64,000 nucleotides of DNA, taken from Nitrosopumilus sp. Lineage in GTDB: Archaea > Thermoproteota > Nitrososphaeria > Nitrososphaerales > Nitrosopumilaceae. Made by a program: the position numbers and the translations under genes. This document shows positions 7,661 through 54,471 of the stretch, piece by piece. The stretch covers positions 1,504,001 through 1,568,000 of the forward strand of contig OY759726.1 in NCBI GenBank assembly GCA_963662625.1, in the 5' to 3' direction. Every line of letters begins with the position of its first letter. The stretch's first letter is position 1. The notes under the pieces are model-generated. The model worked only from the letters and a program-made list of their open reading frames with translations. It did not search any database and was not told where the DNA came from.

Positions 7661-7665
7661 GACGG

Positions 7666-9359: not shown

Positions 9360-9369
9360 GGCCCGCGCC

Positions 9370-9782
9370 ATGTCTGCCACATTCAGGTACATTCCTTTGA
9401 ATTACGGCGACCAACGTCTGAGGAGGCCTGCATTGGAGGTCGGCTTACCCACAAGTACAGCATCAACATTCACGCATACGTGGACAGCGGCGCATCGCAC
9501 ACATTTGTCCCACAAAGGCACGCAAAACTTGCCGGGCTTTTAGATGAAGGCAACACAGTGAAGGTTCAACATACTGAAAGATCATACGAGGCCAGGATGA
9601 TAGCTGTCAGGTCAATAGAGATAATGCGGGGCCAGGAAGTGTTTGAGAACATGCGTGGCCAGACGGTGCTGGTTGGAGAGAGCTACATCCAATTCTGCAT
9701 TCTTGGCCGGAATTCGGTCTTTAGGTATTTTGACATCACTTTCTATGAAAAGCGCAGGAGGGTTACGCCGATCCGTGTTTAG
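9370..9782 (+). pseudogene. Retropepsin-like aspartyl protease, frameshifted
   Basis: MSATFRYIP...RRPALEV in one frame continues as VDSGASHTF...ILGRNSVFRYFDITF in another. Confidence 0.65.
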
Positions 9783-9789
9783 TGGAGAC

Positions 9790-10205
9790 GTCAGTATTTG
9801 GCGGAACGGGCTGGCCGCTGGCGGCGCAGGCATTCCGGGGCGCATGAAGTATCCTGCAGGGACGCGTTCCTGCCGTGCTCCAGGGGGCCGCGCCGGTGCT
9901 TCGGGAAGGTGCACGCAATGATGGACGGCGCGTTGCCCCACACGGCCGGGGTCGTGAAAAAACGCGTCCCGCGCATCCCCGGCGCGGGGACCGCGTGCCT
10001 ACCCGCCGCCACACCGGAGCAGGACGCCGGGGGAGTGCCGGCGCAGGCCAGGGTGCGGCGTCCAGGCGCCGGGGATGCGCGGGAAGTTCGGGGGAACGGG
10101 GCGCACCCTGTCCGAATACCTGAGGACGTCCCACGCCAACCTGGACGTCATGAGGTACATCGACAGGAAGTCCTTGGCGCTCAAGAGCTTTTGAGCGTTG
10201 CTATA
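9790..10205 (+). mobile_element. IS630-family 3' remnant
   Basis: FGKVHAMMDGALPHTA...CLPAATPE resembles the IS630 DDE C-terminus. It ends GAGCGTTGCTATA, similar to the IS630 end at 61925. Confidence 0.6.
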
Positions 10206-10599
10206 GAAGGGGTGGATCCTCCGTAACGTACAACTGCACCGAAAATTTGCAGACAAACTTGGCGCCGAGAATAGGCTCGCCTGAAAGCCGGACAATCTGA
10301 TACGGGGGGTTCGACGTGAGATGCGCCCTACACAACGCGTGCATGATCCTGCGGGAGTTCTGGTTCTCCCACGAGGGGAATGTCGCGGGGCTCCCCCGAA
10401 ATCCTATCAGGACGGGGCAAAACGGAAGCATGCCTATGTGGAAGGACGATGGCATGGATTTGCCATCGCCGCAAAGGAGGATCCGCATTCAACATGATGG
10501 GCACGAGCGGGAAGGGCCTGCTTACATACAGAGAACCGGGTAACCCCATGCGCAAAAAGCTTGTCTGCAGGCATGGCCGTGCAGCACCCTCATGATCCT

Positions 10600-10850
10600 G
10601 TGGGAATGGGGTTCAGCTCTAAGAGGCCCATCATCAGATACGCTGCGGCGGCAGACGACGATGCGGTACGGCAGCGGTGAGCCGATTCCACATGCGCGAT
10701 CTTGCGCGTAAAGAGGCGAAAAATGGCGATAGTGGTGCGGGACGGGCCCATGTTCATCTGGAGGGGATCCACTGGATGCGGTAGTGTCCCCGCGTCAGGG
10801 AAGGGGTTGCGGTCGGGAGGCCCGGCAAGAGGGCAGAACCGAGGCATGCG
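10600..10850 (+). mobile_element. IS630-family internal fragment
   Basis: MGFSSKRPIIRYAAAADDDAVRQR*AD...RRKMAIVVRDGP aligns by eye with PGLSPKGPTTGYAAAADDDTVRRRRAD...RRKTATVAQDGP at about 61280-61420. Confidence 0.7.
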
Positions 10851-11177
10851 GCTCAATGGATAACGGGGCAGGACTGGCGTAAAGATATGGCAGGTCTGAC
10901 AGGGGCCTCATGAGTTGGCTAGAAGGTGAGTCCAAGGGCTGCATGCCTGCAAACAAGAGCCGCGACTTGGATACCGTGTTAAGGCAATCCGTGCCCGCAA
11001 GACTGTTTGAATATAACATGTACGGGATACAGTTAAGCAAAAAGTGGCCTAACCCTGGCATCGGGGGGACGCGCTCTGGCATTGCATCAGCATGAACAGT
11101 GTACAGATCATGGCGCCTTTCACTTAACTGGGATACCTGCAAGATTTATTTACGCCAGGTGCAGACTCTAATGACCC

Positions 11178-16854: not shown

Positions 16855-17013
16855 GGGGCAGGGGTTCCGGCGGCACATATCGGCCACGCTGGCCCCCTGG
16901 ATGAACGCCTGCAGCACCACGCGCACCTTCTCGTCCGTGCTCCGTCGTGCCCTCCCTTGCCCCCATCGCTAAAGCGCGCAGCGGAGATCTGCCTCCTAGC
17001 GGGATCCGCACCG
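16855..17013 (-). mobile_element. IS3-family left-end fragment, an inverted copy of 12807-12980
   Basis: Reverse complement CGGTGCGGATCCCGCTAGGAGG...GAGCACGGACGAGAAGGTGCGCGTGGTGCTGCAGGCGTTC matches TGGTGTGGACCCCGCTAGAAGG...GAGCACGGACGAGAAGGCACGCATGGTGCTGCAGACGTTC. Confidence 0.85.
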
Positions 17014-17102
17014 CATCTCATGCTGAACAAACCCACGACGCTATGCCTCTAGGATGCCGACATGATTTTTTAAGGGCGGCGCCACACGACCGGTGCCGCC
17101 CC

Positions 17103-17519
17103 ATGGTTCCAGACGTCTTCTCGAAGGAAAAAAGATCCGAGGTGATGCGGGGCATAAAGGGCAAGGGCACCAAGCTCGAGCTGGAGACGGCCCGAATGCT
17201 GCGCCGCGCCAAGATCAAGTACAGGTCGCATCCGAAGATCTACGGATCCCCGGACTTTTTGGTGGATGGGAGGCTTCTGCTCTTCTGCGACGGCTCGTTC
17301 TGGCACGGCAGGAATTGGAAGGTGCTGAGGGCGCGGCTAGCCGCCGGCAACGATCCCGGCTATTGGGTCAGGCACATCGAAACCAACAGGAAACGCGACA
17401 GGAAGGTCAACCGGATCCTGGCAGAACGGGGGTACCAGGTGCTCCGGCTCTGGGATACGGACCTGCAGAAGCGACCCGAGAAGTGCGTGGAGAAGATCAA
17501 AAAAGCGCTGCGTTCCTGA
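17103..17519 (+). CDS. vsr: Very short patch repair endonuclease, second copy
   Basis: MVPDVFSKEKRSEVMRGIKGKGTKLE, GSPDF, FCDGSFWHG and GYQVLRLW motifs. Confidence 0.92.
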   Translation: MVPDVFSKEKRSEVMRGIKGKGTKLELETARMLRRAKIKYRSHPKIYGSPDFLVDGRLLLFCDGSFWHGRNWKVLRARLAAGNDPGYWVRHIETNRKRDRKVNRILAERGYQVLRLWDTDLQKRPEKCVEKIKKALRS

Positions 17520-17879: not shown

Positions 17880-17900
17880 GCACCCTACTAAAATATCATA

Positions 17901-18887
17901 TTGGAGAGTAAAATGCATATGAAAAAGGAAACCATGGATATGTCTGACGCTGAACGAGGGATATCGGATATTGCCTCATCCGAAGGCGATTTATCTGATT
18001 TCACAGCAATCTGCAGGTTGATTTGTAATAATCGCGCAATCTCAAAAGACAGACTTTTCAAAATCATCAAGAATTCCATTATAAACAAATCAGACGCCGT
18101 GATTGAGCGAAAATTAAACATTATGTGCAAATTAGACCTGTTAGATTTGGCCAACCAAAAATTTGTACTCCGCGCTAATGGTAAAATATTGGTTGAAATA
18201 AGCAACAAACAATCTGTTTTTTCAGAAAAAATAGAAAAGGCATTTTATTTTATAATATTATTCAGTTCGAAAGCAAGACTGCAACTCACCTCGCTCCTTC
18301 AATCTATAAACGAACAAAATGGAGACGATAAAAGGGAAAACATTGCAAGATATTTTAAAGCAAATATAGTCCAGGAGATATGGAATAAAAAAACAATCGA
18401 AAAGAATCTTACCGCTTTAGAAACAACACAAAGATTGCCAAGCATGCTTAACAATAAATTTTCTTGCATGGAAAAATGGTTAGAGTTTATTGATCTAATA
18501 GAAATAAGAAAAAATGGCCTGCACGCAAATTTGACTTCGGGGCTGATTAGCTCGCTGCTAAACCCAGAAAACAAGAAAAACATATTTGGCGAAGCCGCAA
18601 CAAAGTATTACACCGAATCCAAAGAATTCCGCATTAAGCAGCACTATCGAGATTTGTGTACGTATTTTCTTGAGGGCCATGGTAAATTCCTCACCCCTGC
18701 CGGAATCAGTGACGCCGAAGCAGTAGCAAAATTCGTGTGCTTGCAATTACTCAAATCAAACATAATCTTGGAAGAGAACGGTTTTTTCAAACTGACCAAG
18801 AAATTAAAAAAAGACAAAATCCTTCGCTCAGTAATGATGGGCAGGGACGGCACGCCTAAGAATTTCGGCGTGGATTACTATACCTGA
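17901..18887 (+). CDS. Hypothetical protein of the AT-rich island, possibly winged-helix DNA binding
   Basis: Intact AT-rich 328-aa ORF with wHTH-like segments (MCKLDLL...FVLRANGK; WLEFIDLI). It is convergent with the operon and overlaps its last gene. Confidence 0.6.
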   Translation: MESKMHMKKETMDMSDAERGISDIASSEGDLSDFTAICRLICNNRAISKDRLFKIIKNSIINKSDAVIERKLNIMCKLDLLDLANQKFVLRANGKILVEISNKQSVFSEKIEKAFYFIILFSSKARLQLTSLLQSINEQNGDDKRENIARYFKANIVQEIWNKKTIEKNLTALETTQRLPSMLNNKFSCMEKWLEFIDLIEIRKNGLHANLTSGLISSLLNPENKKNIFGEAATKYYTESKEFRIKQHYRDLCTYFLEGHGKFLTPAGISDAEAVAKFVCLQLLKSNIILEENGFFKLTKKLKKDKILRSVMMGRDGTPKNFGVDYYT

Positions 18888-19971
18888 GAATGTTTTTGTT
18901 CCTAGCGACAAATTCCGAATTAATATGATCGAGATCTTTTTCAGCCGCCTCCCGCACCAGCCGTCCACAGTTGGGGAGAAGAAACCCCGGATAGTGGTAT
19001 TCGGGGCCCATCAGCCCGAATAATCCGTCTAAGGCATCATCACAAAAGGGAAGCAGTTTGTCTCTCTGCGTGTCTGATTCCCCCAAATAAAGACTGTGGT
19101 GAACACGCAAAAACTCTGAAACATGCTCAGCGCCAAGACTGTCAAGCGGCACCAAGTAATCAAATCTTCTTGAGAGCTGCTCGGAAAACCCGATGTCATA
19201 CCACTCGTCTTCTTTCTCAGCTGTAAATGATGCGATTAGCGCAAAATTTTCTGAAAAATCGTCCAGGAGGGCTCTTAAACTGTCGCCTATGGCGTTGCTA
19301 ATTCTGATTGGAGTGTTTTCTAATTCGTCAATGACCAGTACTACCGGCCCAAAATTTTTGCAAAGGTGGGCGATTAGCTCCTTTAGCATCGTTAGTCTTT
19401 TGTAATCGCCGTCTAAGGCATAAGTAATGTCCAATTTGTCAAGCTCTGAGACTGAAAGGCGCTCGCCGAACAACCATTTTTTTGCAAGTTCGGGTTCCCT
19501 CAAATTAGTGCTAATCATATAGAGGGCTTTTGCCAATTCGGTGTTTGGAATTAACTTCTCCCAATTCGCGGTAGAGCCGTTACCATATTTTGCCTTAATA
19601 AAATCTGCTATATTTTTAAGGTTGTTTTTCATGAAATATGAAATGGCTTCCCTATACATTACTGAAAAAGATGGTTCTACTGCAGGGATCAGCGTGTAGA
19701 TAAAAATGATGTTCTGGGAACCGTGCGAGCGTCTGACTAGCTCCTTGCTGATGATTTTCGTAAGCCAGGTTTTGCCGCTGCCTGTCTGGCCAAAAATTCT
19801 CATTCCCACGCGAGCCCCCCCCGAAACATCCTCCAAAAACTGATCCAATTTTTTCCTTGCGTCCGCCAAGTCCGGCCTATCCCACTCGAGAAATTTTTCA
19901 TCAATCTTGTAAGGGTTGGTTGATTCGTAGGGATTTTGAACAAAATGGTACTTTTCAAAATATCTGGACAT
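18856..19971 (-). CDS. P-loop AAA+ ATPase (BrxD/Cdc6-like architecture)
   Basis: Walker A GQTGSGKT, Walker B VLVIDELE and a candidate Arg finger QLSRRF. Confidence 0.8.
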   Translation of the reverse strand: MSRYFEKYHFVQNPYESTNPYKIDEKFLEWDRPDLADARKKLDQFLEDVSGGARVGMRIFGQTGSGKTWLTKIISKELVRRSHGSQNIIFIYTLIPAVEPSFSVMYREAISYFMKNNLKNIADFIKAKYGNGSTANWEKLIPNTELAKALYMISTNLREPELAKKWLFGERLSVSELDKLDITYALDGDYKRLTMLKELIAHLCKNFGPVVLVIDELENTPIRISNAIGDSLRALLDDFSENFALIASFTAEKEDEWYDIGFSEQLSRRFDYLVPLDSLGAEHVSEFLRVHHSLYLGESDTQRDKLLPFCDDALDGLFGLMGPEYHYPGFLLPNCGRLVREAAEKDLDHINSEFVARNKNILRYSNPRRNS

Positions 19972-20004
19972 GATTTTACTGATCTCGTATTTTGTACCCT
20001 TGTC

Positions 20005-20475
20005 TTATACTTTTCCTTGTATTTCGCTAATGTATTTCTGGGCATTTGAGATGAGATCGCACCGCTCGTTTTCTATGAATATCCCCGCCTCTTTATTTTC
20101 GTGAATCGCGGTATTACTAATGTTTAAGCTTGAAACTAAAAGGCTGTCAGTAGCGCCTGTTAGCAAAACCATCTTTGCGTGTACTGATCTTCTAAACATA
20201 ATGGTCACTCCTAGGTTTTCAATCAAGTCAGAAACAAATTCCTGCTCAGTAGGATCATTTTTGAGCGTTCTTTTGTTTATTATGATTATGACCTTTACCT
20301 GACTGCGGATCAACTGCTCCAATTTTTTACGAAATGGCACTCCGTTAATTGTGGCGTTGTGAATGTGCTGGCTAACGATTTTAAGTTGCTTCAGGCCCCT
20401 CCTTGCGGTTATCATTTGGTTTAGGCGAAATTCTAGGGAATGGCCGGAAACAAATTCTATCACCATGCATCTCAC
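20005..20475 (-). CDS. Single-domain phospholipase D-family (Nuc/DpdK-like) protein
   Basis: HAKMVL...SSLNIS...ENKEAG matches HxK-x(n)-SxN-x(n)-NxE. Confidence 0.8.
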   Translation of the reverse strand: MRCMVIEFVSGHSLEFRLNQMITARRGLKQLKIVSQHIHNATINGVPFRKKLEQLIRSQVKVIIIINKRTLKNDPTEQEFVSDLIENLGVTIMFRRSVHAKMVLLTGATDSLLVSSLNISNTAIHENKEAGIFIENERCDLISNAQKYISEIQGKV

Positions 20476-20498
20476 CCTGTATTTTTTATCCCACGATC

Positions 20499-21527
20499 TT
20501 ACTGCCTCATGTTTTTTAAGGATTTAAACAGGCTTGCAAAATTCGTTTTTCCCATGATTCTTTCAACGTATTCGTCGTAGCGGTTCTCGTGAATTAGCTT
20601 TCTTGCCTTCTTTAGCTCCTGCTGGTGAGTCCAAGCGTTGTGAATCGCCCTGGCGTAAAAATCATCCTCCAGCCCCTTCATACCATGGCGCCTGCACATG
20701 GGGCACCTGCAGTTTTCCAGCTTTTTCCCCTCTTCTTTAGAAAGCCGCGGGTATAGTTTTTTTCTTGCCACCTTTGAAACCCACCTGTCGCCCATCCCGG
20801 GCATCTGGATTGCGCCAAACGCCGCCTTTGTCCTCCAGGCAGAACTGTCAAGGGAGTCTGCGCCAGCATAGTACATCAAGTGCATCGTGAGCGTGCCGCC
20901 TGTGCCAAAAACGTGCAGTTTTGCCCTAGGAATTTGCTTTCGAACCTCCAAGATCACCTTCATTACGTTGAGGATCCCGCCCACCCCCTTGACGTTATAC
21001 ATGGCAGGAACCAGGCTGCCAATGCCGTAAATTGGGAACCTGTCGATTTTTTTCAGCCTTTTCACATAATCCCGAATTTCTCCTGCGTCATAACCATGAA
21101 TAACCGGCACCAGAACGGGATTTTTTGTAACTTTGTTTTTTAGCATGATCCTTGTATTTTGTAGCGTTTTTGATTTCCGCCTTTCGTTTTCTTCTTTAGG
21201 TAGGGTGGGAAACAGGGGATGGTCCAAAACCACGCCAAAATTTGGTTTAGCCCTTTCGTAGAAACCAATAATTTCTTCTGCAGAAACATCCATGTGTTTT
21301 CTTTTCATGAATAAAAACCCGCCAGAATCCATCATGATCGGACCACGAAATCCCAAAAAGCCATGAATTTTTTCCTCTTGCGCTGTTTTGAATGCGTGTG
21401 GGTGCTGCATAAAGTCATGCGCATTCATTAAAACACCACCCACTCTGAAATAATTCCAAGGCGCGCTCTTTTTATCTGCGACCATTTGGCTAAACCACAG
21501 CATCGGGTATTCTATTTTGTGTTTCAT
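20499..21527 (-). CDS. tRNA-guanine transglycosylase (TGT)/DpdA-like protein lacking a PUA domain
   Basis: MMDSGGF, VLDHP, PVIHG, GIGSLVP, LHVFG, GADSLDSS (catalytic Asp) and a Zn site CRCPMC...H. Confidence 0.88.
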   Translation of the reverse strand: MKHKIEYPMLWFSQMVADKKSAPWNYFRVGGVLMNAHDFMQHPHAFKTAQEEKIHGFLGFRGPIMMDSGGFLFMKRKHMDVSAEEIIGFYERAKPNFGVVLDHPLFPTLPKEENERRKSKTLQNTRIMLKNKVTKNPVLVPVIHGYDAGEIRDYVKRLKKIDRFPIYGIGSLVPAMYNVKGVGGILNVMKVILEVRKQIPRAKLHVFGTGGTLTMHLMYYAGADSLDSSAWRTKAAFGAIQMPGMGDRWVSKVARKKLYPRLSKEEGKKLENCRCPMCRRHGMKGLEDDFYARAIHNAWTHQQELKKARKLIHENRYDEYVERIMGKTNFASLFKSLKNMRQ

Positions 21528-22258
21528 GTCGTCTTTATCTGCCTAAGAAGCGATTTGAGCACCTTTGGGTGGGCCACACCGTACATGTCCCATGCAAATG
21601 TACCGCGCTCGTTGACCAGGTTTTTAATTTGATTTTTTGTTGGTAATATTTCTATGTCTAAATGATATCTCCGAGATGCTAATTCCAACATTCTCCTATG
21701 AGTATGATCGTCTTTTTGATCCAAAGCAGAAGAGTACGTTCTCACACACGCGATTATTTTTTTGTATTCTTGTCCTACTCTTTTTAGTGTCTTTCCAACA
21801 TTGTCAGAAATAATCTCAATGCTTCTATCCAAGTATTCTTTATCGTACTCTTGCTTGTATCGACGGCACCACCATTCAAAAAGCCCTGGGCAATCATACC
21901 ATTCGAACCCAGAAAAATACTGGTCTGGTACTAACCCGAAAGGCTCTGAAATAGTCATCACCTGAATTTGCTCTCTTTTTCCATTAAGCCTATCTAGATA
22001 TTGGTACAGCTGTTGGTATGAGCGTGATCTGTTGTATGGCTTAACTGTAGAGCATGGATAAATCAGCAAAACGTCTTTTCTTTCTGGGACATACGTTTTG
22101 GCCATGAAATTATGCCATTTTTTGATATCCGGGTTGGACGCTAGTCCTTTGTAGACCTCTTCTGGCGAATAGAAGCACAGGGACTTCTTAATTTTGACAC
22201 CTTTGCCAACTCTGGAAGAAACTGTTCGGTATAGTTCTAACTTTGACATTTCCACCAC
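21524..22258 (-). CDS. DUF5591 / archaeosine synthase (ArcS) core-like protein
   Basis: PCSTVKPYNRSRSY, ISEPFGLVP and YDCPG motifs. It overlaps the TGT-like gene by 4 bp. Confidence 0.75.
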   Translation of the reverse strand: MVEMSKLELYRTVSSRVGKGVKIKKSLCFYSPEEVYKGLASNPDIKKWHNFMAKTYVPERKDVLLIYPCSTVKPYNRSRSYQQLYQYLDRLNGKREQIQVMTISEPFGLVPDQYFSGFEWYDCPGLFEWWCRRYKQEYDKEYLDRSIEIISDNVGKTLKRVGQEYKKIIACVRTYSSALDQKDDHTHRRMLELASRRYHLDIEILPTKNQIKNLVNERGTFAWDMYGVAHPKVLKSLLRQIKTT

Positions 22259-22279
22259 GGTTCAATGTGTACGGGGGTT

Positions 22280-25200
22280 CTAGCCATGATCTTCCACCTC
22301 GTCCGAATTCAAGGCAATGCCTAACTTGACAAAGCCTTTCTCATACAATATTTGAACAGATTTTGTAACGGCAGGATCAAATAAATTATTGCCAACTTTG
22401 TTTAGTCCCGGTTCTAGCTTTCCCGGATCCACGTAATCCTTTCCAGATGATACGTCCGAAACGAGTTGTAATAAACCGGCAGATCCTCTGTCGATATCTA
22501 ATTCTTGGATAATTTTTTTCATGAAAACATCTCTCCGCCTATTTAATTCATTGACCATTTTAATCCATGTCATTTTATTCATCCTTTGTAAATGGTCTTT
22601 TAATTTACTTGAAAATTTTTCGAAATCCATTCTTGATTCTATCAAGACAACTTGCTTTGATTCAGGTAAATTTTTTGAACAGATATTTACAAAATTAACG
22701 AGTGTTTTTGTTTTCGCTTCGACAGCTTCGATAAATTTTTTAATAATTTCATGCAACGCTATATTGATCTGCTCTATTTGCTCACTCAAATCCTTCATGT
22801 TAGAATTAATCTCTGTCACGCATTTAACAAATATCACAATTTCTGATAAAGACGTTGGCAGTTCTAAATATTCTTTATTGGCAGAATTCAAAGATTTTTT
22901 CATATCATTAATTTTCTTTTGGATTGCCACAGTGTTGATCGTTGAGTCTGACACATCTTCAGAACCCACTATAAAGTCACTTAAATCCTCTAAACATTTT
23001 TTACATTCCTCATAATGCTTAAGGAAAGTGCATTCATGCTGATCCACTTCTTTTATTTTCTCTAATATTTCGCCCCTGCGTTGATTAAAAGCTGCTAGTT
23101 TTTGGCTAACAGTAGAAAAATACTCTTCAATTTGTTTTAAATCCTTTATTTTTGTGGTTTTTGGAAGTGCCGGTGGTTTGATTTGGGTAGCTGACTTGTG
23201 TAGGCCGCTGGAAATTTTATGTGCACTCGGAAAAACAAAAGTTGCGGTTGCAGCCTTAATTTCTCGGTAGGATTCCTTGATACTTTGTGCAAGGCTATTG
23301 GTTTTGTCAGTTGTGCGCTTCATCGCGTCAAGTTCAGCATCAAAACATTCTACAGCCTTTTTTAGATTATGATAGGGTAAGCTAAAGTAATATGCATCGT
23401 CAGCACTTTTCTCAAAATAAAAGGCGGATTTTTTATGATCTTTTTTAGAGTCTTTCATCCCTATAGATTGAGTTTCTTCTGTGACGAGTCTTCGTTCGTA
23501 AGTTTTTTCATATTCGCTCTGAACTAAATCGACAAATTTCTTTTGGATGCTCTCCAAAATAATTTCAGAAGTGATATGTTGTTCTTTATTGGATACTAGC
23601 TTGTTAAATGTTAAAATAATTTCATCTATTTGATGTTTATAGCTTTCAAATTTAGACATGGTATCCTTGAATAATTTGGCTTTTTGGTTATTTGCCTCGG
23701 TAATTATTGGACGAACATTTTCTTGATAATAATCGTAAATTGCAATTATTAATTTGGAAAGACGAAGCTCTTCGTCACCGTCTGAATCATTTTTTTTATC
23801 AAGTAATCCTTGTAAAACATGAATGTAATCTGATTCACTTATTACCCTACATTCTCTCATTTTTGTTTGCGAAATAAAGTGACCGTTTGAATTATCTTGA
23901 GGATATGATTCATTCATGTATTTTTCAACAGCATTAATTTTTGGTTGAAATACTGCATCGCCCTTCTTTATTATGGCGTAAGTGTTATTGGTTTTTCTAA
24001 TTTTTCCCTTCTGGATCAATGTGTTTAGATAATAATTCTGCAATGCTCCCTCGGCGTTAGACTGGTTTACGAATTCCTGTTCCAGTCCAGCCTGTGAATT
24101 TTTATTTTTTCCTAGTAATCGAATAACCCTTTTTTCTACAGGTGTGTCAACTGACATGATTACGGAGTTAATGTCCTTTAAAAATTGGTTGTTAGTTAAT
24201 CCATATGCCCAAGATTTCCATTCGTCTTTAGTTTCAATATCTATCGGGCAAAATGATCCTTTACTACCAAATAACTTGATTGATTTTAATTTTTTATAAA
24301 ACTCCCATTGCTCATCGATTGGAAAATTGGATGTACTTATAAAAGAAGAGATCGCTTCTCTGATACTGCTCTTACTGTAATCTCCCAATTCTTTGAGTAA
24401 CGGAATTATGATTCCGGAAGCTTCCGCCTTTGGAATCCAAAAATTTTCAATGCGTTGCTTCAGCTTTAATTCATTTATTATTGCAGAAATGCGGGATTTT
24501 TCAGTGATGCGATTAATTTGGATTTTTTCCACTTTTGCACGTTTCCAACAAAGTAACTGCTCGACATTAATTCTGTCTATTGGAATTCGCTGAATCTCAC
24601 CCACACCCTCCAGTAATTCATGAACGGGTTTTTCCAAATGTGTTTGGTAGAATAACAAAGTCAGAACTGCAGGAGTGGCATCAACAAGCTTTCTAATTTT
24701 ATCAATTTTTTCTACAGAAATATTCTCGATGATTCCTTCAATTATAATGGGAATTGGATTGTCCCGTTCATTTAACTTTAAAAGAAAATACTCCTCCTGC
24801 GGCTCACAATTAATATCTGAAAGTTTTATCGCATCAATTAGTGCGTACTTGAGATCATGATGAATCTTATCACGGTTTTTCACATCCCCCAAATCCCTTT
24901 GGATTTTTCTTCTTAACTCTAGCCGTTTACTTCTGTCTTTAATAAAATCAAATTTAATTAAGTTTGGAGATGGAAAGACGTTTTCTAGAAGATTTACTGA
25001 AACACGGTAAAATCTATTCGAGGTATCGAAATTATTTTTCACGGAATGATAGAATTTTCCAGCAATGGTACTATCAATACCTAACAATCTAGATAATTCG
25101 TGTGGGTCTTTTGGAATTACAATCTCTTTATCAAAATAATTCTTTGATAAATTACTGCTTATAACATAGTTTGTAAATGATTCTTTTAATGTAGCGATCA

Positions 25201-26554
25201 GGATAGAATTATAGTCAACAGTTATGTACTGATTCTTGCCTTGTTCGATTTTTGTATAGTTTGATAAAATTGAATCGAAATCCCGCCCTTCTTTCAATTT
25301 ATAATATACCCCAAAAGCAGAATCAAGTTTGTTTTGGTTTTGAAGATTTTCATTAATTTGATTAACCAAATTGCTGATATCTTTTTTAGGAATACTTAAT
25401 CTTTCAGAAATTTCATCGATGGAAAAGGCCTTGTTTTCTCCTGTTAGCAATTCAAAGATTTTAATTAATTTTTCCGAATTTCTCCTTGAATTACTTAATG
25501 ACTTTCTGAAACCATCTAGCATGTTAGCTTCAATTGCGGACGTGGATGATCCATAAACGGAAACTTTGACATCATTTAATTCTTTAAACAGCTGTGTGTA
25601 ATCAATGCAGCATATCGTGGTTTTATCATAAGGGATCGCCTTGCTCATTAGCTTGTAGAGCAGCTGGATTAATGCCCTGGGGTTTCTTTGAGAAATATTT
25701 ACAATAGTTTCAAAAATCCCGGCACTAGCAATTGGCAACTTTTCTAATTTTCCAGCATAGCTAACTTTTACTAGCTCAGATAAAAAGTGGTAGCAATCAA
25801 ATCTCGAGAGGAGAGGTAATTCAATCAAATTGTAGGCGAGTCTTTGTTCAGTGCTCCCCATTACTTGAGAAAAATTAGGATCTTCAGTAATCGTATTCCA
25901 TGCATACGGCGTACACGCAACAAAGATGTGCAACCTTCCCTCGTATTTACCTCCTTCAGATAATGATCCAAATTTTTTGTTGATGACTTCTTTAATTCCT
26001 GAAATCACATCAGCTTTAATATCCTCATTGTAGAGAATTTCTTCAAACTCATCTAAAAATAAATACATTTTTTTTTGATTATTTTCAAACAATTCTGCAA
26101 GTTTTTCATTCAGATATCTTACTGGATCTTTTATCATATCTTTGTAAAACAGTCCTTTATCTCCCTCCTGAGAATATAGATCGTCACCCACTGCAGTTAA
26201 TAATGCTGTTAAAAAATTGGTGGCGGTGTTTGAATGATGCGTATAGCTTTCATTCCTACGTAATTTCTTTGCCAGTGTACTGGTAGATACCGAATAGCAA
26301 TAGTGATGTTTTAGAACCGTTGAGATATAGCGATCAAATGCATCAGTCTTACCTTCCCCCCATTCTGCTTTAATCAGACATATCTGGATGTTCTTATCAT
26401 TACGAGTTTTTTCAATAAAGCCGTCGATTAAATTCGCGACTGATTCGCGCCCAGGAATCTTTGCATTTTTAACTCCTTGGAAAGGAACGCCTTTGGGGTC
26501 TGGTAGATTTCTGAGATCGAAAACTGGTGCAGTGCTAACCATCCTAACCCTCAC
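22280..26554 (-). CDS. Large (1424 aa) P-loop ATPase with HTH-like and long coiled-coil regions, BrxC-like in size and layout
   Basis: Walker A AEWGEGKT, Walker B YLFLDEFE, HTH-like FSIDEISERLSIPKKDI and a heptad-rich C-terminal third. Confidence 0.75.
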   Translation of the reverse strand: MRVRMVSTAPVFDLRNLPDPKGVPFQGVKNAKIPGRESVANLIDGFIEKTRNDKNIQICLIKAEWGEGKTDAFDRYISTVLKHHYCYSVSTSTLAKKLRRNESYTHHSNTATNFLTALLTAVGDDLYSQEGDKGLFYKDMIKDPVRYLNEKLAELFENNQKKMYLFLDEFEEILYNEDIKADVISGIKEVINKKFGSLSEGGKYEGRLHIFVACTPYAWNTITEDPNFSQVMGSTEQRLAYNLIELPLLSRFDCYHFLSELVKVSYAGKLEKLPIASAGIFETIVNISQRNPRALIQLLYKLMSKAIPYDKTTICCIDYTQLFKELNDVKVSVYGSSTSAIEANMLDGFRKSLSNSRRNSEKLIKIFELLTGENKAFSIDEISERLSIPKKDISNLVNQINENLQNQNKLDSAFGVYYKLKEGRDFDSILSNYTKIEQGKNQYITVDYNSILIATLKESFTNYVISSNLSKNYFDKEIVIPKDPHELSRLLGIDSTIAGKFYHSVKNNFDTSNRFYRVSVNLLENVFPSPNLIKFDFIKDRSKRLELRRKIQRDLGDVKNRDKIHHDLKYALIDAIKLSDINCEPQEEYFLLKLNERDNPIPIIIEGIIENISVEKIDKIRKLVDATPAVLTLLFYQTHLEKPVHELLEGVGEIQRIPIDRINVEQLLCWKRAKVEKIQINRITEKSRISAIINELKLKQRIENFWIPKAEASGIIIPLLKELGDYSKSSIREAISSFISTSNFPIDEQWEFYKKLKSIKLFGSKGSFCPIDIETKDEWKSWAYGLTNNQFLKDINSVIMSVDTPVEKRVIRLLGKNKNSQAGLEQEFVNQSNAEGALQNYYLNTLIQKGKIRKTNNTYAIIKKGDAVFQPKINAVEKYMNESYPQDNSNGHFISQTKMRECRVISESDYIHVLQGLLDKKNDSDGDEELRLSKLIIAIYDYYQENVRPIITEANNQKAKLFKDTMSKFESYKHQIDEIILTFNKLVSNKEQHITSEIILESIQKKFVDLVQSEYEKTYERRLVTEETQSIGMKDSKKDHKKSAFYFEKSADDAYYFSLPYHNLKKAVECFDAELDAMKRTTDKTNSLAQSIKESYREIKAATATFVFPSAHKISSGLHKSATQIKPPALPKTTKIKDLKQIEEYFSTVSQKLAAFNQRRGEILEKIKEVDQHECTFLKHYEECKKCLEDLSDFIVGSEDVSDSTINTVAIQKKINDMKKSLNSANKEYLELPTSLSEIVIFVKCVTEINSNMKDLSEQIEQINIALHEIIKKFIEAVEAKTKTLVNFVNICSKNLPESKQVVLIESRMDFEKFSSKLKDHLQRMNKMTWIKMVNELNRRRDVFMKKIIQELDIDRGSAGLLQLVSDVSSGKDYVDPGKLEPGLNKVGNNLFDPAVTKSVQILYEKGFVKLGIALNSDEVEDHG

Positions 26555-28223
26555 CTAGTAAACCCTTCACTACATCAGTAGTTCCAGCAGTGTGTGGGAT
26601 CACCCTGTCATTTGAGCTCACTTTAATCGTTAATGGAATGGGTAATTTTTTGGACATTTGCCCCGTAACAATTACTTGGCCTTGAGAAAGATTCGTTAAT
26701 TTGTTTTCTCGTGATTTAGGCAAACCTCCTGTCACTTTTCTCACAAAACTAATATCACCAAATGCGATTCTATGGATAAAGAATGTATTTACCATGGAAA
26801 CGACCACTTCATCTAAAAATGCAGGTCTTTGAGAGATGAGGCATAACCCAATTCCAAATTTTCTTCCTTGTGTTGCAATAACGTGTAATTTTCTTCTAGC
26901 TAATCCTGCACCTACCTTGTACACGGAATCATTGGGTATATAGTTATGTGCTTCCTCAATTGCAAAAATAATGTATTTCTTTGCTTTATCAGTTTTATAG
27001 CGGGTGAAGGTTTTATAAATTAAAGATGCGAAATACCCCACTACTGCTTGCTTTAACTCTGGGGAAATTCCCGGCGCGCCATCAGATGAAAAATCTATTA
27101 TTGCAATTTCGCGGTTATTTGTAAGTTTGTCAAGGAAATTACGAGTAATTGTGGGATCCTCATCGAAAAGTTTTGATGTTAAAGCTTCGCGTCTAAATTT
27201 TTCTAATGCTCTTCGTATTGCACCTGCAACAGAACTATGAATTTCTGGATTTTTACCAGTTGAGAAATCGTTTAATTTAGTAGTTATGCGTTCGAATTTG
27301 GCTTCATCAGTGAATAACTCACTATAACGGAATTCTGGAGGTTCTTGGTTTGGATTTCCGATATCATTTTGTAGTTCCATATATTCAATCACTCTTTCCA
27401 GTCCCGTAATTTGAAGTTCGGGCAACTCCCCACCCGTATAAAACTGCATTATGATTTCCGCTAATTCAGTTCGTGATAGTGTACCTAGATCAATTCTTAG
27501 TTCAGCGACGTTTGCATCTCCTCGTTGTGTGGATACAGGGAAAACATATCGTGTAATATTTTTACACGCGCCATCTAAACTATCTCCATTAACTGCATAA
27601 TCAGTATAGTCGCCATTAGAATCTATTATCAGCATGGGCATAGCTACTAGTCGGGTTGGTCCTGCAGGGACATTCACAAATTTTTCAATCAGTGCACCCA
27701 CGTTGTAGGATTTCCCACTACCAGTAGTCCCAAAAACTGCCATATGCATCGGTATTTCTTCTATACTCAGCGGAATTGGGGCCTTTTGATATCCAAGTAG
27801 TGTACCATACCACACGTATCCTGGTTCGTTTCTTCCAATCCCAAAAATCGTTTCAGGATCAGACACGTCAACTTCAAAAACAGGGTCGCCTGGCAGCGGA
27901 GGATGGTTAAGCAGGGCCAGATGTGGAATTTCGCCTAAAAGCTCCAGTGTACAGGTTACATATTGCCGGGCTACGTTTGAAGGGATACTGAAATCCTTTC
28001 TTCTGGATTCTGACCACGCATCCCCTTTGGTGTAGAAATCATTGTGAGGTTCTACGCTTTCTACATGAGCAAGAATGTCTTTGCCTCTAGATTCAATTAA
28101 GACTAATTTGCTCTCCGTTATTTTATGCTCAAAGTTTTCAAATAACTGAAATTTTGCTTCAGAAGAAGAACCGGCAGTGAGGATGACTCCTATTTTATCC
28201 CCTTTTGGGTTTCTGGCCATCAA
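26544..28223 (-). CDS. herA: HerA-family ATPase/translocase
   Basis: N-terminal HAS-barrel-like region, HMAVFGTTGSGKS, IEEAH and GRKFGIGLCLISQRP. Confidence 0.92.
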   Translation of the reverse strand: MMARNPKGDKIGVILTAGSSSEAKFQLFENFEHKITESKLVLIESRGKDILAHVESVEPHNDFYTKGDAWSESRRKDFSIPSNVARQYVTCTLELLGEIPHLALLNHPPLPGDPVFEVDVSDPETIFGIGRNEPGYVWYGTLLGYQKAPIPLSIEEIPMHMAVFGTTGSGKSYNVGALIEKFVNVPAGPTRLVAMPMLIIDSNGDYTDYAVNGDSLDGACKNITRYVFPVSTQRGDANVAELRIDLGTLSRTELAEIIMQFYTGGELPELQITGLERVIEYMELQNDIGNPNQEPPEFRYSELFTDEAKFERITTKLNDFSTGKNPEIHSSVAGAIRRALEKFRREALTSKLFDEDPTITRNFLDKLTNNREIAIIDFSSDGAPGISPELKQAVVGYFASLIYKTFTRYKTDKAKKYIIFAIEEAHNYIPNDSVYKVGAGLARRKLHVIATQGRKFGIGLCLISQRPAFLDEVVVSMVNTFFIHRIAFGDISFVRKVTGGLPKSRENKLTNLSQGQVIVTGQMSKKLPIPLTIKVSSNDRVIPHTAGTTDVVKGLLGEG

Positions 28224-29389
28224 TGAACATCTCCCATCATTTTCATTTGAATTATGTTTTCCACATCTTCATTACTCTTAGAACCGGTAATAAATTCCCT
28301 AAATAATATGTCTGCCGCTCCTTGTCCAATATTGCACTTTTCATGTGCTAAAATCACAGGAATAGGGATGTGTCTTCCGGGTGCAGCCCACCTAACGATA
28401 GATTTGATTGCTTCGATTACTAAATCATTTTTAACAAATTTTTTGCTTGGAGACAACGCAATATCTACACGAATAGGGCTGGAGACATAGCCATTTGCCA
28501 TCAGAAATGTTAAAACATCCACACCATTGTTCTGATATTCATTTGCGGCTTTTTTACCAATTTCGCCAGTTTTTCCTTTAGAGTTAATCTCTGAAAGTAA
28601 AATTGGTTCAGTGTAAGCAAGACAGTCTTTATCATTTTTTAGATACTCTGTAAAAATATGTACTGCTAAATTTTTATCTGAAAGCATATTTTCAAATTCA
28701 ACTGATTCGCTTAAAGGAAAAAATGATTTGTAATGGTTGGAGAATAATGTTCCGCTAATTCTTTTTACGATTCCAATTAACTGTGCTCCTCTCGAAAAAC
28801 CCTGTTTGATCGCAAATGTCCTTCCTTCAACGTATTGTTTTTGATTTTCGAACGGAGGATCAATAATTGGACCATCAAGAAAAATAATTCCATCGCTTTC
28901 TTTTTTCCTAGACATCGCCGTAACCTTTAACGCTTCTGTTTCCATATCCATCATGAATTTTTCCGCCGCAGCGCCTGCGCCTTTCTCGTCAATTTGATTT
29001 ATTGTTCGAATTGCTGGAGTTACTAGAACATCAACGTCAGAATCATAACCTTGGGGATACCTTATTCTTGCGACGCTGTAAAAAATCATCCACCCGCCAT
29101 CTGGTCTGGGGTATTTTTGCAGACTTCCATCTACGGCATCTGTAAGCGTTTTGGCATATTCAGAAAGATCTGTTTTTGTCAAATCCATTTTATGAATAAT
29201 GCTTTTCGAAACCATTAGTGAGAGAGCTTTCTTAGCACTTTTGCGATATTCTTTGGCAGATTGCTTCATTGCCTCGGATTGTTTTGATGTTTCCTCAACA
29301 AATTTTACCATGGCTTCTGCAGGAAGCTTGTTGAAGCTAAGCATGTTGAGTTCTCTACGAAGCTGTTCTTCTTTGTATAAATCAGGCAT
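28220..29389 (-). CDS. nurA: NurA-family 5'-3' nuclease
   Basis: AVDGS, FLDGP, GIVKR and PxPVILAHEKC motifs. It overlaps herA by 4 bp. Confidence 0.85.
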   Translation of the reverse strand: MPDLYKEEQLRRELNMLSFNKLPAEAMVKFVEETSKQSEAMKQSAKEYRKSAKKALSLMVSKSIIHKMDLTKTDLSEYAKTLTDAVDGSLQKYPRPDGGWMIFYSVARIRYPQGYDSDVDVLVTPAIRTINQIDEKGAGAAAEKFMMDMETEALKVTAMSRKKESDGIIFLDGPIIDPPFENQKQYVEGRTFAIKQGFSRGAQLIGIVKRISGTLFSNHYKSFFPLSESVEFENMLSDKNLAVHIFTEYLKNDKDCLAYTEPILLSEINSKGKTGEIGKKAANEYQNNGVDVLTFLMANGYVSSPIRVDIALSPSKKFVKNDLVIEAIKSIVRWAAPGRHIPIPVILAHEKCNIGQGAADILFREFITGSKSNEDVENIIQMKMMGDVH

Positions 29390-29410
29390 AAATATAGGAT
29401 GATCTTGCTA

Positions 29411-29425
29411 TGTTTATAATATTTT
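29411..29425 (-). promoter_or_regulatory. Probable archaeal TATA box of the nurA operon
   Basis: TTATAAA on the minus strand 24-30 nt upstream of the ATG at 29389, consistent with a leaderless transcript. Confidence 0.55.
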
Positions 29426-29828
29426 AGTGTGGATAATGCGGCAGTCTGTACACATGATAACCAACCAGACGTATCTGCATCAACGGATCGACTCTTTGCA
29501 TGTGGGCCCAGTGCCCTTGAGCTTGAGTGGGGCAACCGAGCTGGTTGTGTATTGGGCCTAGTGCCTTAACAGGCGTGTGTATATTCCTGCCCGTCAGACA
29601 TTTGAAAGGATGTGATGGGAAAGGATTAGAAAGACAAGCACAGGGATAGACATAGGGGAGGAAAACTGCGACATGTGCATGGTGGATATGCCGGGACGAT
29701 CCTCGAGGGAGGGCATTACCCCAACACCCGGGACGGAGCGTGGAAGTTTGTGAGAGTGATGGCGCGCAGGTGCCTGGGGGCGGCTCCCGGAGCATAGAAA
29801 ATAAAAGTATCATGCGTACCTGAAACCC

Positions 29829-31886
29829 ATGCGCCTGGCAAGCTTTCATATAAAGAAGTACCGCTCCATCGAGGACTCTGGTGAAATACGAGTTGATGAA
29901 AACGTCACGACTTTTGTAGGGATCAATGAAAGCGGCAAGACAAACGTCCTGCGAGCACTAAAGAGGCTAAACCCTATAGAGGACACCTGCTTCAATGATC
30001 TTGCCGAACAGCCCACATGGCACTTTGAAAGCATGGATCCGGAGGAAGTCTTCGTCACCGCAACTTTCAAACTAAGCGGTAAAGAAAGAGACAGGGTTAG
30101 TGAAATCAGCGGCAGGCTGGTGCAACTAGACGAAGTCAAGTTCAGCAGGAGAAAGAATATGAATCTTATTTGTGATCTTGAGGCCGAGCAAGAGGCGATC
30201 CACTTTGATGCGTTTGACAGGAACTACCTGCAACCCATACTCGCCATCCTTAACTCTGTTAATCCGAACGCCTTTGAGCGTGGTCAGGGGCAGAAGGACA
30301 TCATCATAGGAATATTCGAAGACATAGTACATGGTTACGAAGGGAAGTCAAACGTGAGGCAGCCACAAACCCTTGCTTCAATAAAGCAACGCATGAAGTA
30401 TTTCACACACACGTTATCTGTAATTTCGGGCGACCACGCAAAAAAAGCCTCGATTAATTCTGCGATTGAAAGGATATACTCCGAAGTGACGGAGGATCCT
30501 ACAGAAAAAATAAAGGAATACCTTGTCAAAGCTCTGCCCCGGTTCATTTATTTTGCAAACGTTGCCATAATAGACAGCAGGATTCACCTGCCGACGTTTG
30601 TCAAAAAACTTGATGCGAGTGGGCTGAGCGAAGACGAAAAAACTGCAAAGACTCTACTGGATCTGGCAGGTTTGGACGCAAAAGACCTGCACAAGCTAAG
30701 CACGGATGGAAATGACCGCGCAGAGGTTCGAGAAAACCATGACAGGTTGGATAGGTTGCTGAGTGGCGCATCAACGAAGGTCTCCAACGAGATTGACAGT
30801 ATCTGGGATCAAAACGACCACGACATAGAGTTCAGGGTTCAAGGAGAGAATTTCAGGGCATGGGTGATCGACAGGAAAGACAAGACAAAACTCCAACTGG
30901 AGGAGGGAAGCAGGGGATATCGGTGGTATTTTTCCTTCTACGTGATTTTCAGCGCAGAATCAAAGGGGAGACACAAAGACGCGATAATTTTGCTTGACGA
31001 GCCGGCGCTGTACTTGCACCCGAAGGCGCAGTCGGACCTTCTCAAAAACGTGCTTCCAAAGATGGCGGAAAAAAACCAGATCCTATACACCACGCACTCG
31101 CCTTTCATGGTGAACCTGAGTGATCCGGCCAGCATCCACACTGTCACGCTAAAGGACATCGAACTGGAAGGCCGGGCCGCTAGGAAAGTCACGCAGATAT
31201 CTGACAAAGTATGGGACGACGACCGCATGGCACTGTTCCCATTACAATCTGCGCTTCATTACACAATGGCACAATCTATGTTCATCGGCAAAAAAAACCT
31301 CATAGTGGAAGGCGTCACAGATCTTTGGATGCTGGGCGCTGCTTCGGCCCTCTTGGAATCTGCCGGCAAAACTCATTTGAAGCAGGATTTCGTGCTTGTC
31401 CCGGCCGGGGGAGCAACCAAGTCGGTATTCTTTGCGAGCACGTACAAGTCACAGGGATTGGACGTCGCGGTCCTGCTTGACGCCGATCCAGAGGGGGAAA
31501 CTGCACATGACTTGCTTGTTAAGAACAAGGTACTCCGAGGTCAGAAGGTCGTCCTGATCAACGAGATGCTGGGCAAGAATGGCAACATGTCGATTGAAGA
31601 CGTGTTTCCGGAGGATTACTACCTGAAATTCGTAGAATCAGCCTATCAAAATGAACTCAATGAAAAGAAAATCGAAAGAATCACGCTTACGTCGCAAGAT
31701 CCGATGGTGCTGAGGAGAATAGAAGAATTCTTCAGGGAGAAAGGCCTGCCAGAATTCCACAAGGGTAGGCCAGCGCGTGCTATACTGGAAGAGTTTGGTC
31801 AAGCCGATACGAATGCCCTTCCTGAGGTTCTTATCTGCAGGCTTGAGAAACTGTTTGCGGGGATTAACAAACTGATGGGCGGTTGA
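29829..31886 (+). CDS. OLD-family ATP-dependent nuclease (ABC ATPase plus TOPRIM)
   Basis: GINESGKT, SRGYRW, LLDEPALYLHP and TTHSPF, followed by TOPRIM LIVEGVTD...LLDADPEG...SIED. Confidence 0.88.
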   Translation: MRLASFHIKKYRSIEDSGEIRVDENVTTFVGINESGKTNVLRALKRLNPIEDTCFNDLAEQPTWHFESMDPEEVFVTATFKLSGKERDRVSEISGRLVQLDEVKFSRRKNMNLICDLEAEQEAIHFDAFDRNYLQPILAILNSVNPNAFERGQGQKDIIIGIFEDIVHGYEGKSNVRQPQTLASIKQRMKYFTHTLSVISGDHAKKASINSAIERIYSEVTEDPTEKIKEYLVKALPRFIYFANVAIIDSRIHLPTFVKKLDASGLSEDEKTAKTLLDLAGLDAKDLHKLSTDGNDRAEVRENHDRLDRLLSGASTKVSNEIDSIWDQNDHDIEFRVQGENFRAWVIDRKDKTKLQLEEGSRGYRWYFSFYVIFSAESKGRHKDAIILLDEPALYLHPKAQSDLLKNVLPKMAEKNQILYTTHSPFMVNLSDPASIHTVTLKDIELEGRAARKVTQISDKVWDDDRMALFPLQSALHYTMAQSMFIGKKNLIVEGVTDLWMLGAASALLESAGKTHLKQDFVLVPAGGATKSVFFASTYKSQGLDVAVLLDADPEGETAHDLLVKNKVLRGQKVVLINEMLGKNGNMSIEDVFPEDYYLKFVESAYQNELNEKKIERITLTSQDPMVLRRIEEFFREKGLPEFHKGRPARAILEEFGQADTNALPEVLICRLEKLFAGINKLMGG

Positions 31887-54461: not shown

Positions 54462-54471
54462 ATTTATGTTG

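Follow-up and report, generated by a model that had tools for sequence, protein, structure and literature searches.

A short TGT-fold transglycosylase and a stand-alone DUF5591 protein of Nitrosopumilus sp. belong to a conserved NurA-HerA-ATPase module that may act in Dpd-like defence

To our knowledge, 7-deazaguanine marks in cellular DNA have so far been documented for the bacterial Dpd island, and otherwise in viruses. The Dpd island of Salmonella Montevideo (dpdA-K) joins a preQ0-using DNA transglycosylase with the fold of tRNA-guanine transglycosylases (TGT), an enzyme acting on the nitrile, and restriction genes of the ATPase and nuclease types (PMC10164549, PMC5699537). A smaller arrangement is described for the Sulfolobus viruses STSV1, STSV2 and STSV4 and for Vibrio phage nt-1, in which adjacent, overlapping genes encode a short TGT without a PUA domain, treated as DpdA, and a core-only DUF5591 protein, treated as ArcS2 (PMC10516641). 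Here we analyze a window of 64,000 nucleotides (nt) of Nitrosopumilus sp. (assembly GCA_963662625.1, contig OY759726.1, positions 1,504,001 to 1,568,000), in which a gene pair of this kind lies within an island of low GC content. A sequence-only reading of the window had singled out a 342-aa TGT and a 244-aa ArcS-core partner, both of which correspond exactly to open reading frames (ORFs) of the minus strand (Table 1), and had invoked the viral pairing of DpdA with ArcS-like genes as a precedent, which the published viral genes bear out. It missed the larger unit: the two genes form the modification end of a conserved module of five genes, NurA-HerA-giant ATPase-DUF5591-TGT. We think it probable, though far from assured, that the pair constitutes the modification arm of a horizontally acquired, Dpd-like defence module of the restriction-modification type, which would mark DNA with a preQ0-derived base.

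The stop codon of the DUF5591 gene and the start codon of the TGT gene overlap by 4 nt (ATGA), as is typical of translationally coupled genes. In the island TGT, PF01702 (E = 1.2e-25) is the sole Pfam domain and fills residues 30-327; the protein is therefore devoid of a PUA or other C-terminal region, as had been proposed from the sequence. The partner protein likewise contains a single Pfam domain, DUF5591 (PF17884, residues 45-173), and carries PCSTVKPYNRSRS, in agreement with its earlier description as the core of ArcS and nothing else. The motifs previously named for the TGT are also present, with catalytic aspartates in MDSGGF (D67) and GADSLDS (D227) and an arcTGT-type Zn site formed by C273-x-C275-x2-C278...H296. 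In a family alignment of 19 sequences, residues D67, D102, H144, G145, D227, C275, C278 and H296 are invariant, and C273 is conserved in at least 90%.

The active site of the island TGT is intact. Its residues D67, D102, H144 and D227 align to Asp95, Asp130, His181 and Asp256 of S. Montevideo DpdA (PDB ID: 7ui4; the 20-residue tag offset of this structure was checked against Asp95), so that all four DpdA active-site residues are conserved. In DpdA, Asp95 acts as acid/base, Asp130 and His181 read the base, and Asp256 is the nucleophile (PMC10164549). Because H144 aligns to His181, the HG dipeptide formed by H144 and G145 is the counterpart of DpdA His181. The sequence-only reading had set this dipeptide against the Gln of tRNA TGTs, and Gln does occupy the H144 position in four housekeeping arcTGT proteins and one bacterial TGT. 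Histidine is found there in S. Montevideo DpdA, in STSV2 DpdA, in haloarchaeal plasmid TGTs and in one ArcS. We considered this residue as a DpdA signature and rejected it, as four plasmid-encoded bDpdA proteins have Gln.

To place the island TGT among its relatives, we inferred a maximum-likelihood tree of 43 rows under LG+C20, with a single bacterial TGT (bTGT) as the outgroup and with one barely matching ArcS row left out. The four housekeeping arcTGT proteins and the bTGT outgroup are split from all other rows with support of 100/95. On the DpdA side of this branch lie two haloarchaeal plasmid TGTs, a Xanthomonas phage protein, and the four annotated bDpdA proteins together with a short Paenibacillus TGT; a group supported at 97/87 comprises an Aulosira plasmid TGT, a Methanofastidiosa virus TGT, STSV2 DpdA and the island family. 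The window TGT itself lies within a 99/96 clade of 21 rows. The tree, in which several branches are long (that of the lone bTGT outgroup included) and no DpdA1-4 reference sequences stand among the rows, places the island TGT in a DpdA-containing clade, apart from arcTGT. Consistent with this placement, the best matches to the TGT and DUF5591 proteins in a phage collection are the adjacent genes of STSV1, STSV2 and STSV4 (28-29% and 31-32% identity, respectively), and the island TGT matches the viral family phrog_887 (42.4 bits), whereas the housekeeping arcTGT matches no PHROG. The island pair differs from its viral relatives in that the gene order is reversed, with DUF5591 first, and in that its setting is cellular and linked to nuclease genes. 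Furthermore, the Cys motif of the Zn site, present in the island TGT, is absent in STSV2 DpdA.

The host genome, 1.86 Mb in a single contig, is archaeal by its small-subunit rRNA (1456 bits with the archaeal SSU model). It encodes a separate housekeeping tgtA of 505 aa at about 598.4-599.9 kb, some 0.9 Mb away from the pair. The product of this gene passes the cut-off of the TgtA model TIGR00432 (464.4 bits against 350), whereas the island TGT fails it with 105.8 bits. Pfam sees no PUA domain in the 505-aa TgtA, and most of the TGT matches in relatives of the host lie in similar frames of 500-580 aa. Since a separate tgtA exists and the tree parts the island TGT from arcTGT, the island TGT is neither the only TGT of its genome nor a member of the orthologous arcTGT cluster, two traits that the sequence-only reading had held, together, to be at odds with its proposal. 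The same duality is seen in other carriers. In four further carrier genomes the island copy scores 57-99 Pfam bits and a separate TGT 265-535, and a fifth, fragmentary genome yields only a piece of a separate TGT; a full tgtA is present in every complete carrier genome checked. One carrier (G002) also encodes a canonical ArcS (467.7 bits against the NF040592 cut-off of 440).

Within the phylum, the distribution of these genes is that of an acquired element. We scanned 40 relatives of the host (2 from the genus, 22 from the family and 16 from the order) for TGT genes. They gave at most one match each (25-33% identity, in frames of about 380-580 aa, mostly 500-580), and one genome, 89% complete, gave zero, so that a second TGT is found in 0 of the 40. 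Across the phylum, 8 of the 401 genomes scanned, the host among them, encode a homologue of the giant ATPase, and within the same family the figure is 0 of 56. The seven other phylum genomes with such a homologue include two with all five genes and one with a decayed locus. The island is thus foreign, horizontally acquired and patchy in its distribution.

Searches with the island TGT returned 237 homologues (E≤1e-3). The lengths of the 120 listed range from 304 to 369 aa, those with names among them belonging to Methanodesulfokora, Methanomethylicia, Bathyarchaeia, Aenigmatarchaeota, Thermococcus (one bearing the name of a species in culture) and Asgard records, and the homologues span many archaeal lineages and a few bacterial metagenome-assembled genomes. 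A genome scan provided 23 loci (numbered here with the prefix L), of which the 13 of at least 16 kb were used for counts of the module. Genes for NurA, HerA, an ATPase of 1394-1456 aa, DUF5591 and TGT occur together in nine of these 13, and in seven of the nine full loci they are colinear (NurA-HerA-ATPase-DUF5591-TGT); the restriction genes are inverted in L016, and the order differs in L020. In L019 and L020, DUF5591 is represented by a short form of 175-186 aa (Pfam, 65.7 and 74.7 bits). Locus L010 contains the pair together with PLD, ATPase and 328-aa genes but has no NurA, HerA or big ATPase, and L014, L021 and L030 contain a TGT without the rest of the module. L021 is distinctive in harboring two tandem TGT paralogues (8669-11083; 389 and 392 aa) of a sister lineage, with no DUF5591, NurA or HerA detected within 10 kb of them.

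A metagenome scan identified 128 relatives, the best 80 of which were retained and searched with the window proteins (tblastn, E≤1e-5); some of these loci duplicate genome loci, L065 and L011 being one contig. Of the 61 metagenome loci in which the upstream flank reaches 800 bp or more, 59 have DUF5591 immediately upstream of the TGT, or 41 of 43 after merging TGTs that are at least 95% identical, and it is partly visible in 12 of the 13 loci whose flank measures 150-799 bp. In 29 of the 32 loci with at least 8.2 kb upstream, genes for NurA, HerA and the ATPase are all found, as they are in 24 of 27 after de-duplication (counted with a long flank on either side). With 237 homologues and this linkage to DUF5591, the features of the family are well beyond chance.

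The genes that accompany the family elsewhere point to mobility and to 7-deazaguanine metabolism. Tyrosine integrases are encoded in five related loci (L010, L017, L019, L020 and L029), and a primase-polymerase/D5 helicase gene adjoins the TGT in L014. QueC adjoins the module in L017 and L023, with weaker tblastn matches in L089, L090 and L105, and the QueT transporter is encoded in L014, L016, L083, L090 and L124. The integrase and helicase neighbors lend themselves to another explanation, which we consider quite improbable, whereby the pair would mark the DNA of an integrative element or plasmid against the restriction systems of new hosts while NurA, HerA and the ATPase serve the replication, transfer or exclusion functions of the element. 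Anti-restriction is the known role of viral DpdA (PMC6884629), and the pair does occur without NurA, HerA and the ATPase in L010, L086 and L120. On the other hand, 2.9 million viral contigs yielded 0 relatives of the family with the patterns used, the window contains no integrase, replication gene or att repeat, and the five genes keep their order and overlaps across distant lineages.

The DUF5591 protein has 212 matches at E≤1e-3 among 1.84 billion representatives, only eight of them at E≤1e-30. Stand-alone proteins of 230-280 aa make up the best matches, and proteins of ArcS length appear only at 1e-13 or weaker. Against the ArcS model NF040592 the island protein scores 49.3 bits, below the cut-off, and it matches profile positions 275-342 only; the N-terminal TGT-like, C1, C2 and PUA domains of ArcS are all missing. 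Its AlphaFold (AF2) model is of high confidence (predicted local distance difference test, pLDDT, 95.7), and the sole fold match at E≤0.001 is AF0587 (PDB ID: 2q07, E = 8.7e-6), which we interpret as the C-terminal portion of a split ArcS. In the literature, the ArcS motif reads PC-x3-KPY-x2-S-x2-H (PMC10516641, PMC5699537). The subfamily of the window has PC-x3-KPY-x2-S-x2-Y instead, Tyr81 being invariant in 18 sequences, whereas the motif His is kept in seven full-length ArcS proteins, in STSV2 ArcS2 and in the short form of L019 and L020.

What this protein might do is suggested by work on its relatives. ArcS of T. kodakarensis transfers lysine to preQ0 nucleoside derivatives without a need for tRNA architecture (PMC11298593). 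DpdA2 of phage nt-1 inserts dPreQ0 into E. coli DNA on its own, and the addition of the core-only ArcS2 gives dG+; upon this addition, dPreQ0 fell from 926 to 0 per 10^6 nt, with only 4 dG+ (PMC10516641). The loss of dPreQ0 with little dG+ in that experiment fits an unseen product. It bears on a bolder version of the defence hypothesis, which we regard as unlikely: a distinct archaeal immune system in which the self-mark would be an uncatalogued DNA base, an amino-acid-type amidine adduct of dPreQ0 rather than dG+, read by the 1424-aa ATPase to license or block HerA-NurA. Behind this version stand three traits of the DUF5591 subfamily, namely the substitution of Tyr for the motif His, a C-terminal extension of 110 residues and the lack of a RaSEA partner. 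As the sequence-only reading had remarked, there is no radical-SAM partner at the locus; the ten proteins of the island region gave zero matches to radical-SAM families in Pfam. Its further suggestion, that the final base could be an unusual adduct, is speculative.

The favored explanation, a Dpd-like module that marks DNA, can be spelled out as follows. The precursor preQ0 would be supplied by FolE, QueD, the QueE-like protein and QueC of the host. The origin of preQ0 in a host pathway had been surmised from the sequence and is supported by the genome, in which the genes for the QueE-like protein, FolE and QueC are clustered at about 768-770.5 kb and QueD is encoded elsewhere; the QueE-like gene scores 43.8 bits, below the equivalog cut-off, as do most archaeal controls. 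The host QueC ORF, of 238 aa, matches QueC-type models only, in searches of which none was aimed at Gat-QueC. The TGT would then exchange guanine for preQ0 in double-stranded DNA by the double displacement of TGT and DpdA enzymes, with D227 as the putative nucleophile, D67 as the acid/base, and D102 and H144 reading the base. By analogy with ArcS and ArcS2, the coupled DUF5591 protein may add an amine across the nitrile to give dG+ or a related amidine adduct. Finally, as gene order suggests, the giant ATPase would check DNA for the mark and recruit the HerA translocase and the NurA nuclease against unmarked incoming DNA. A complex prediction for the TGT and DUF5591 proteins returned a score of 0.00 and the verdict 'no answer', and it was used neither for nor against binding.

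Several observations weigh against this explanation, and those that concern the substrate are best considered first. In raw similarity the island TGT is closer to arcTGT than to DpdA, with 105.8 bits against TIGR00432 and 57.4 against the DpdA model NF041059. The latter value is below the cut-off of 200, a 969-aa control protein from a Haloarcula plasmid reaching 263.7, and the DpdA match in PADLOC is of 55.1 bits. Compared with solved structures, the family profile scores 111.9 bits against arcTGT (PDB ID: 1iq8), 35.3 against S. Montevideo DpdA (7ui4) and about 33 against bacterial TGTs, and the AlphaFold model of the island TGT (AF2, pLDDT 88.6) likewise has 1iq8 as its best fold match (template modeling score, TM, 0.74). 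The absence of a PUA domain is compatible with a tRNA substrate, and it is homology and context that suggest DNA as the substrate of the family. Furthermore, the host genome has no detectable ArcS or QueF-L, its weak QueF match being FolE itself, and the island DUF5591 is its only one. The route from preQ0-tRNA to archaeosine in the host is therefore unexplained, and the island DUF5591 could in principle serve tRNA. The Tyr that replaces the motif His implies in turn that its chemistry may differ from that of ArcS. Nor was a DpdB-like partner found among all island proteins by PADLOC, Pfam or NCBIfam, in contrast with bacterial DpdA, which needs the ParB-like ATPase DpdB (PMC10164549).

These observations could be accommodated by an accessory tRNA module, in which the pair would be a split, PUA-less version of arcTGT and ArcS that acts on host or viral tRNA and supplies or boosts archaeosine, its adjacency to NurA and HerA being incidental or regulatory. 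The lack of detectable archaeosine finishing in the host is the best argument for it; the higher scores against arcTGT and the retained arcTGT-type Zn site add to the case, as does the PUA domain of arcTGT, reportedly dispensable for G15 exchange according to the title of one study. We nevertheless give this explanation a small chance. A full tgtA accompanies the island in every complete carrier checked, one carrier has a canonical ArcS as well, and the pair is needed or present in 0 of the 40 relatives. The linkage to NurA, HerA and integrases is tight and wide, the TGT stands outside the arcTGT group in the tree, and its nearest viral relatives are DNA-modifying pairs. The island TGT also differs from arcTGT in lacking the C1, C2 and PUA domains, in having His and not Gln at the base-reading position, and in a 9-residue family-specific segment after the nucleophile Asp, and the locus differs from the archaeosine pathway of arcTGT and ArcS-RaSEA in having no RaSEA-type radical-SAM gene, even though the two folds and the precursor are the same and the best solved structures are 1iq8 and 2q07. 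Of the sequence-only proposal that the substrate is DNA, the positive part looks likely from context and from the nearest relatives, and the preference for DNA over tRNA is one that we infer.

The restriction arm carries counterarguments of its own. It is gene order that suggests a restriction role for NurA, HerA and the ATPase. The linkage has exceptions in the metagenome loci, with a TGT lacking DUF5591 in L063 and L137 and the pair by itself in L086 and L120. One phylum genome encodes HerA and NurA with a distant big-ATPase homologue and no second TGT, and three genomes of one genus (L151, L152 and L155) encode distant homologues of 1388-1400 aa with about 23% identity. In L151 this homologue sits among housekeeping genes (ThiC, Rpb7-like and DUF359), and tblastn found no HerA, NurA or TGT near the homologue in any of the three, so the giant ATPase family is not confined to the module. 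Lastly, the island NurA is the sole PF09376 match of the whole genome, as would be expected if NurA and HerA were the repair genes of the cell, active in housekeeping resection of double-strand breaks, and the TGT pair were an unrelated passenger. We find this scarcely credible, given that the island is low in GC, that the big ATPase is present in 0 of 56 same-family genomes, that Pfam recognizes neither Mre11 nor Rad50 in the ten proteins scanned from the island region, and that the arrangement of these genes with the TGT pair is preserved from lineage to lineage. HerA-type DUF87 domains are found in five further places of the genome besides the island.

Compared with described systems, the logic of the island is that of the bacterial Dpd island, with every part but the TGT fold being different. 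PADLOC matches to Dpd are to DpdA models only, with no DpdB, DpdC or DpdD-K at the island, and the island TGT is without the large insertion of DpdA. The second enzyme is an ArcS core here and a DUF328 protein in Dpd, and the restriction arm consists here of NurA-HerA and a giant P-loop protein. HerA-NurA end resection and the HerA-based defence systems of PADLOC resemble the locus in the overlapping nurA-herA genes and in the match to the anti-phage HerA model (Table 1), but the island has no Mre11, Rad50, Sir2 or DUF4297 partner and is coupled to a base-modification pair instead.

The BRC system, proposed in a 2026 paper as a composite defence of archaea and bacteria with ORC/BrxC-like and STAND ATPases and a wHTH (winged helix-turn-helix) protein, shares with the island a HerA/FtsK-type translocase, large ATPases and a TGT, the last of which is proposed to mark self DNA in BRC (PMC12839542). 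Its defining components are PglZ, DUF6079, DUF4007 and GNAT, but Pfam detected none of these four in the island proteins (remote homology of the 1424-aa and 328-aa proteins aside), and the text of PMC12839542, its supplementary locus lists apart, mentions NurA and ArcS 0 times.

Short TGTs also occur in plasmid clusters of other organization. Plasmids of Haloarcula (L052) and Halobaculum (L046) encode QueE, QueD, the 969-aa DpdA with its DUF6884 region (263.7 bits), an EVE-domain protein and a wHTH regulator, and this Dpd-like cluster continues with a 344-aa short TGT, an unknown protein and a BrxC/D-type ATPase. An annotated dpd cluster on a Paenibacillus plasmid (L053), which includes queCDE, a VUT transporter, dpdA and dpdJ, contains at 5869-10672 a second TGT, of 307 aa; after it come a 246-aa protein without a known family and a 1055-aa KAP-type NTPase. 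On a mobilizable Aulosira plasmid (L047, 1671-10008), a 353-aa TGT, 28.7% identical to the window TGT over 93% of its length, is preceded by genes for HerA-like, Mre11-like (Metallophos) and Rad50/SbcC-like proteins. The Haloarcula, Paenibacillus and Aulosira clusters make the combination of a short TGT with a large P-loop protein a wider theme.

A short TGT that stands beside a true DpdA may do something other than primary marking. The pairing of a short, P-loop ATPase-coupled TGT with a bona fide DpdA on the Haloarcula and Paenibacillus plasmids hints at such a role, and TGT chemistry passes through a covalent intermediate of enzyme and nucleic acid (PMC10164549). It is thus conceivable that the TGT attacks invading DNA instead of marking self DNA, by guanine removal that leaves covalent or abasic lesions or by tagging, and that HerA-NurA process the lesions, in a form of glycosylase-type immunity independent of modification. 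We doubt this strongly: the linkage to DUF5591, QueC and QueT implies a finished 7-deazaguanine base, all base-recognition residues are kept, and nothing at the locus would spare self DNA.

Within the island, seven minus-strand genes are co-directional and closely packed, and the convergent 328-aa gene is the eighth (Table 1). By their coordinates, nurA and herA overlap by 4 nt, and HerA homologues in related loci are 39-50% identical to the island protein. The 1424-aa P-loop NTPase is a candidate sensor or scaffold of the restriction arm; its neighbors in the protein atlas are ATPase clusters, some with AAA_16 or BrxC_BrxD, and colinear homologues of 1394-1456 aa are present in nine other genome loci. 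The window contains no tRNA gene, and no convincing direct repeats flank the island.

Table 1. Coordinates, strand and supporting matches of the island and its genes, numbered from the first nucleotide of the window.
Feature	Coordinates	Strand	Supporting match
Low-GC island	17900..29500	.	30-47% GC per 300 nt vs 65-70% in the genome
328-aa protein, no known family, convergent with the 371-aa ATPase gene, optional accessory	17901..18887	+	homologues in L010, L016, L110
AAA/ORC-BrxD-like ATPase, 371 aa, optional accessory	18856..19971	-	AAA_22 27.3 bits; weak BrxC_BrxD 15.7 bits
PLD-family nuclease-like protein, 156 aa, optional accessory	20005..20475	-	PLDc_2 36.8 bits; DrmC-like 34.2 bits (PADLOC)
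PUA-less DpdA-like TGT-fold transglycosylase, 342 aa, ATG start	20499..21527	-	PF01702 90.8 bits
Stand-alone DUF5591/ArcS-core protein, ArcS2-like, 244 aa, GTG start	21524..22258	-	PF17884 50.6 bits
1424-aa P-loop NTPase, long helical C-terminal part	22280..26554	-	weak nSTAND_NTPase5, 22.9 bits, residues 28-81
HerA-type hexameric translocase ATPase, 559 aa	26544..28223	-	DUF87/HerA PF01935 93.1 bits; PADLOC HerA 119.5 bits
NurA-type nuclease, 389 aa, first gene of array	28220..29389	-	PF09376 39.9 bits

Homologues of the PLD-family protein adjoin the pair in L010 and L016, and those of the 371-aa ATPase are found in L010, L016 and L110; the latter protein is also related to the BrxC/D ATPase that adjoins a haloarchaeal plasmid TGT (E = 2e-6). 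The PLD, 371-aa ATPase and 328-aa genes accompany the pair again in L010, L016 and L110 and thus look like a second, optional arm. The 328-aa protein itself has no Pfam, NCBIfam, PADLOC or PHROG match, its L016 homologue shows a weak wHTH match (HTH_45, 20.7 bits), and it has no similarity to the 299-aa protein adjoining a haloarchaeal plasmid TGT. Its assignment as DpdG, a sub-threshold lead from the protein atlas (0.88), was unsupported by Pfam and was not adopted.

Other genes in and around the island were also recognized. Divergent from nurA, at 29829-31886 on the plus strand and with 46-52% GC, is a gene for an OLD-family protein of 685 aa (AAA_15 91.1 bits, PADLOC Old 95.3 bits, weak OLD-like TOPRIM), probably an additional, separate defence gene of this island. 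Just beyond the low-GC stretch, at 16947-17519 on the plus strand, lies a gene for a Vsr-type mismatch endonuclease (Vsr 66.3 bits) with a DUF559/MTES_1575-like C-terminal part; no methyltransferase was recognized in the three ORFs scanned upstream of it. Two other dips in GC content, at 54001-56000 (0.475) and 1-2000 (0.545) of the window, may be further foreign insertions.

A TGT/DUF5591 pair has a published precedent in viral DpdA and ArcS2. The literature searched, which comprised open main texts and had subscription journals and supplements outside its scope, contains no description of NurA-HerA with TGT and DUF5591, and the five-gene module was not found described there. If the favored explanation is true, the module would be a second, differently built system of the restriction-modification type based on 7-deazaguanine, disseminated by mobile elements among many lineages of archaea and a small number of bacteria. 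NurA and HerA would gain a defence role tied to base modification, the orphan 'core-only ArcS' proteins of archaea would gain a function, and a new DNA base might possibly be added to those known.

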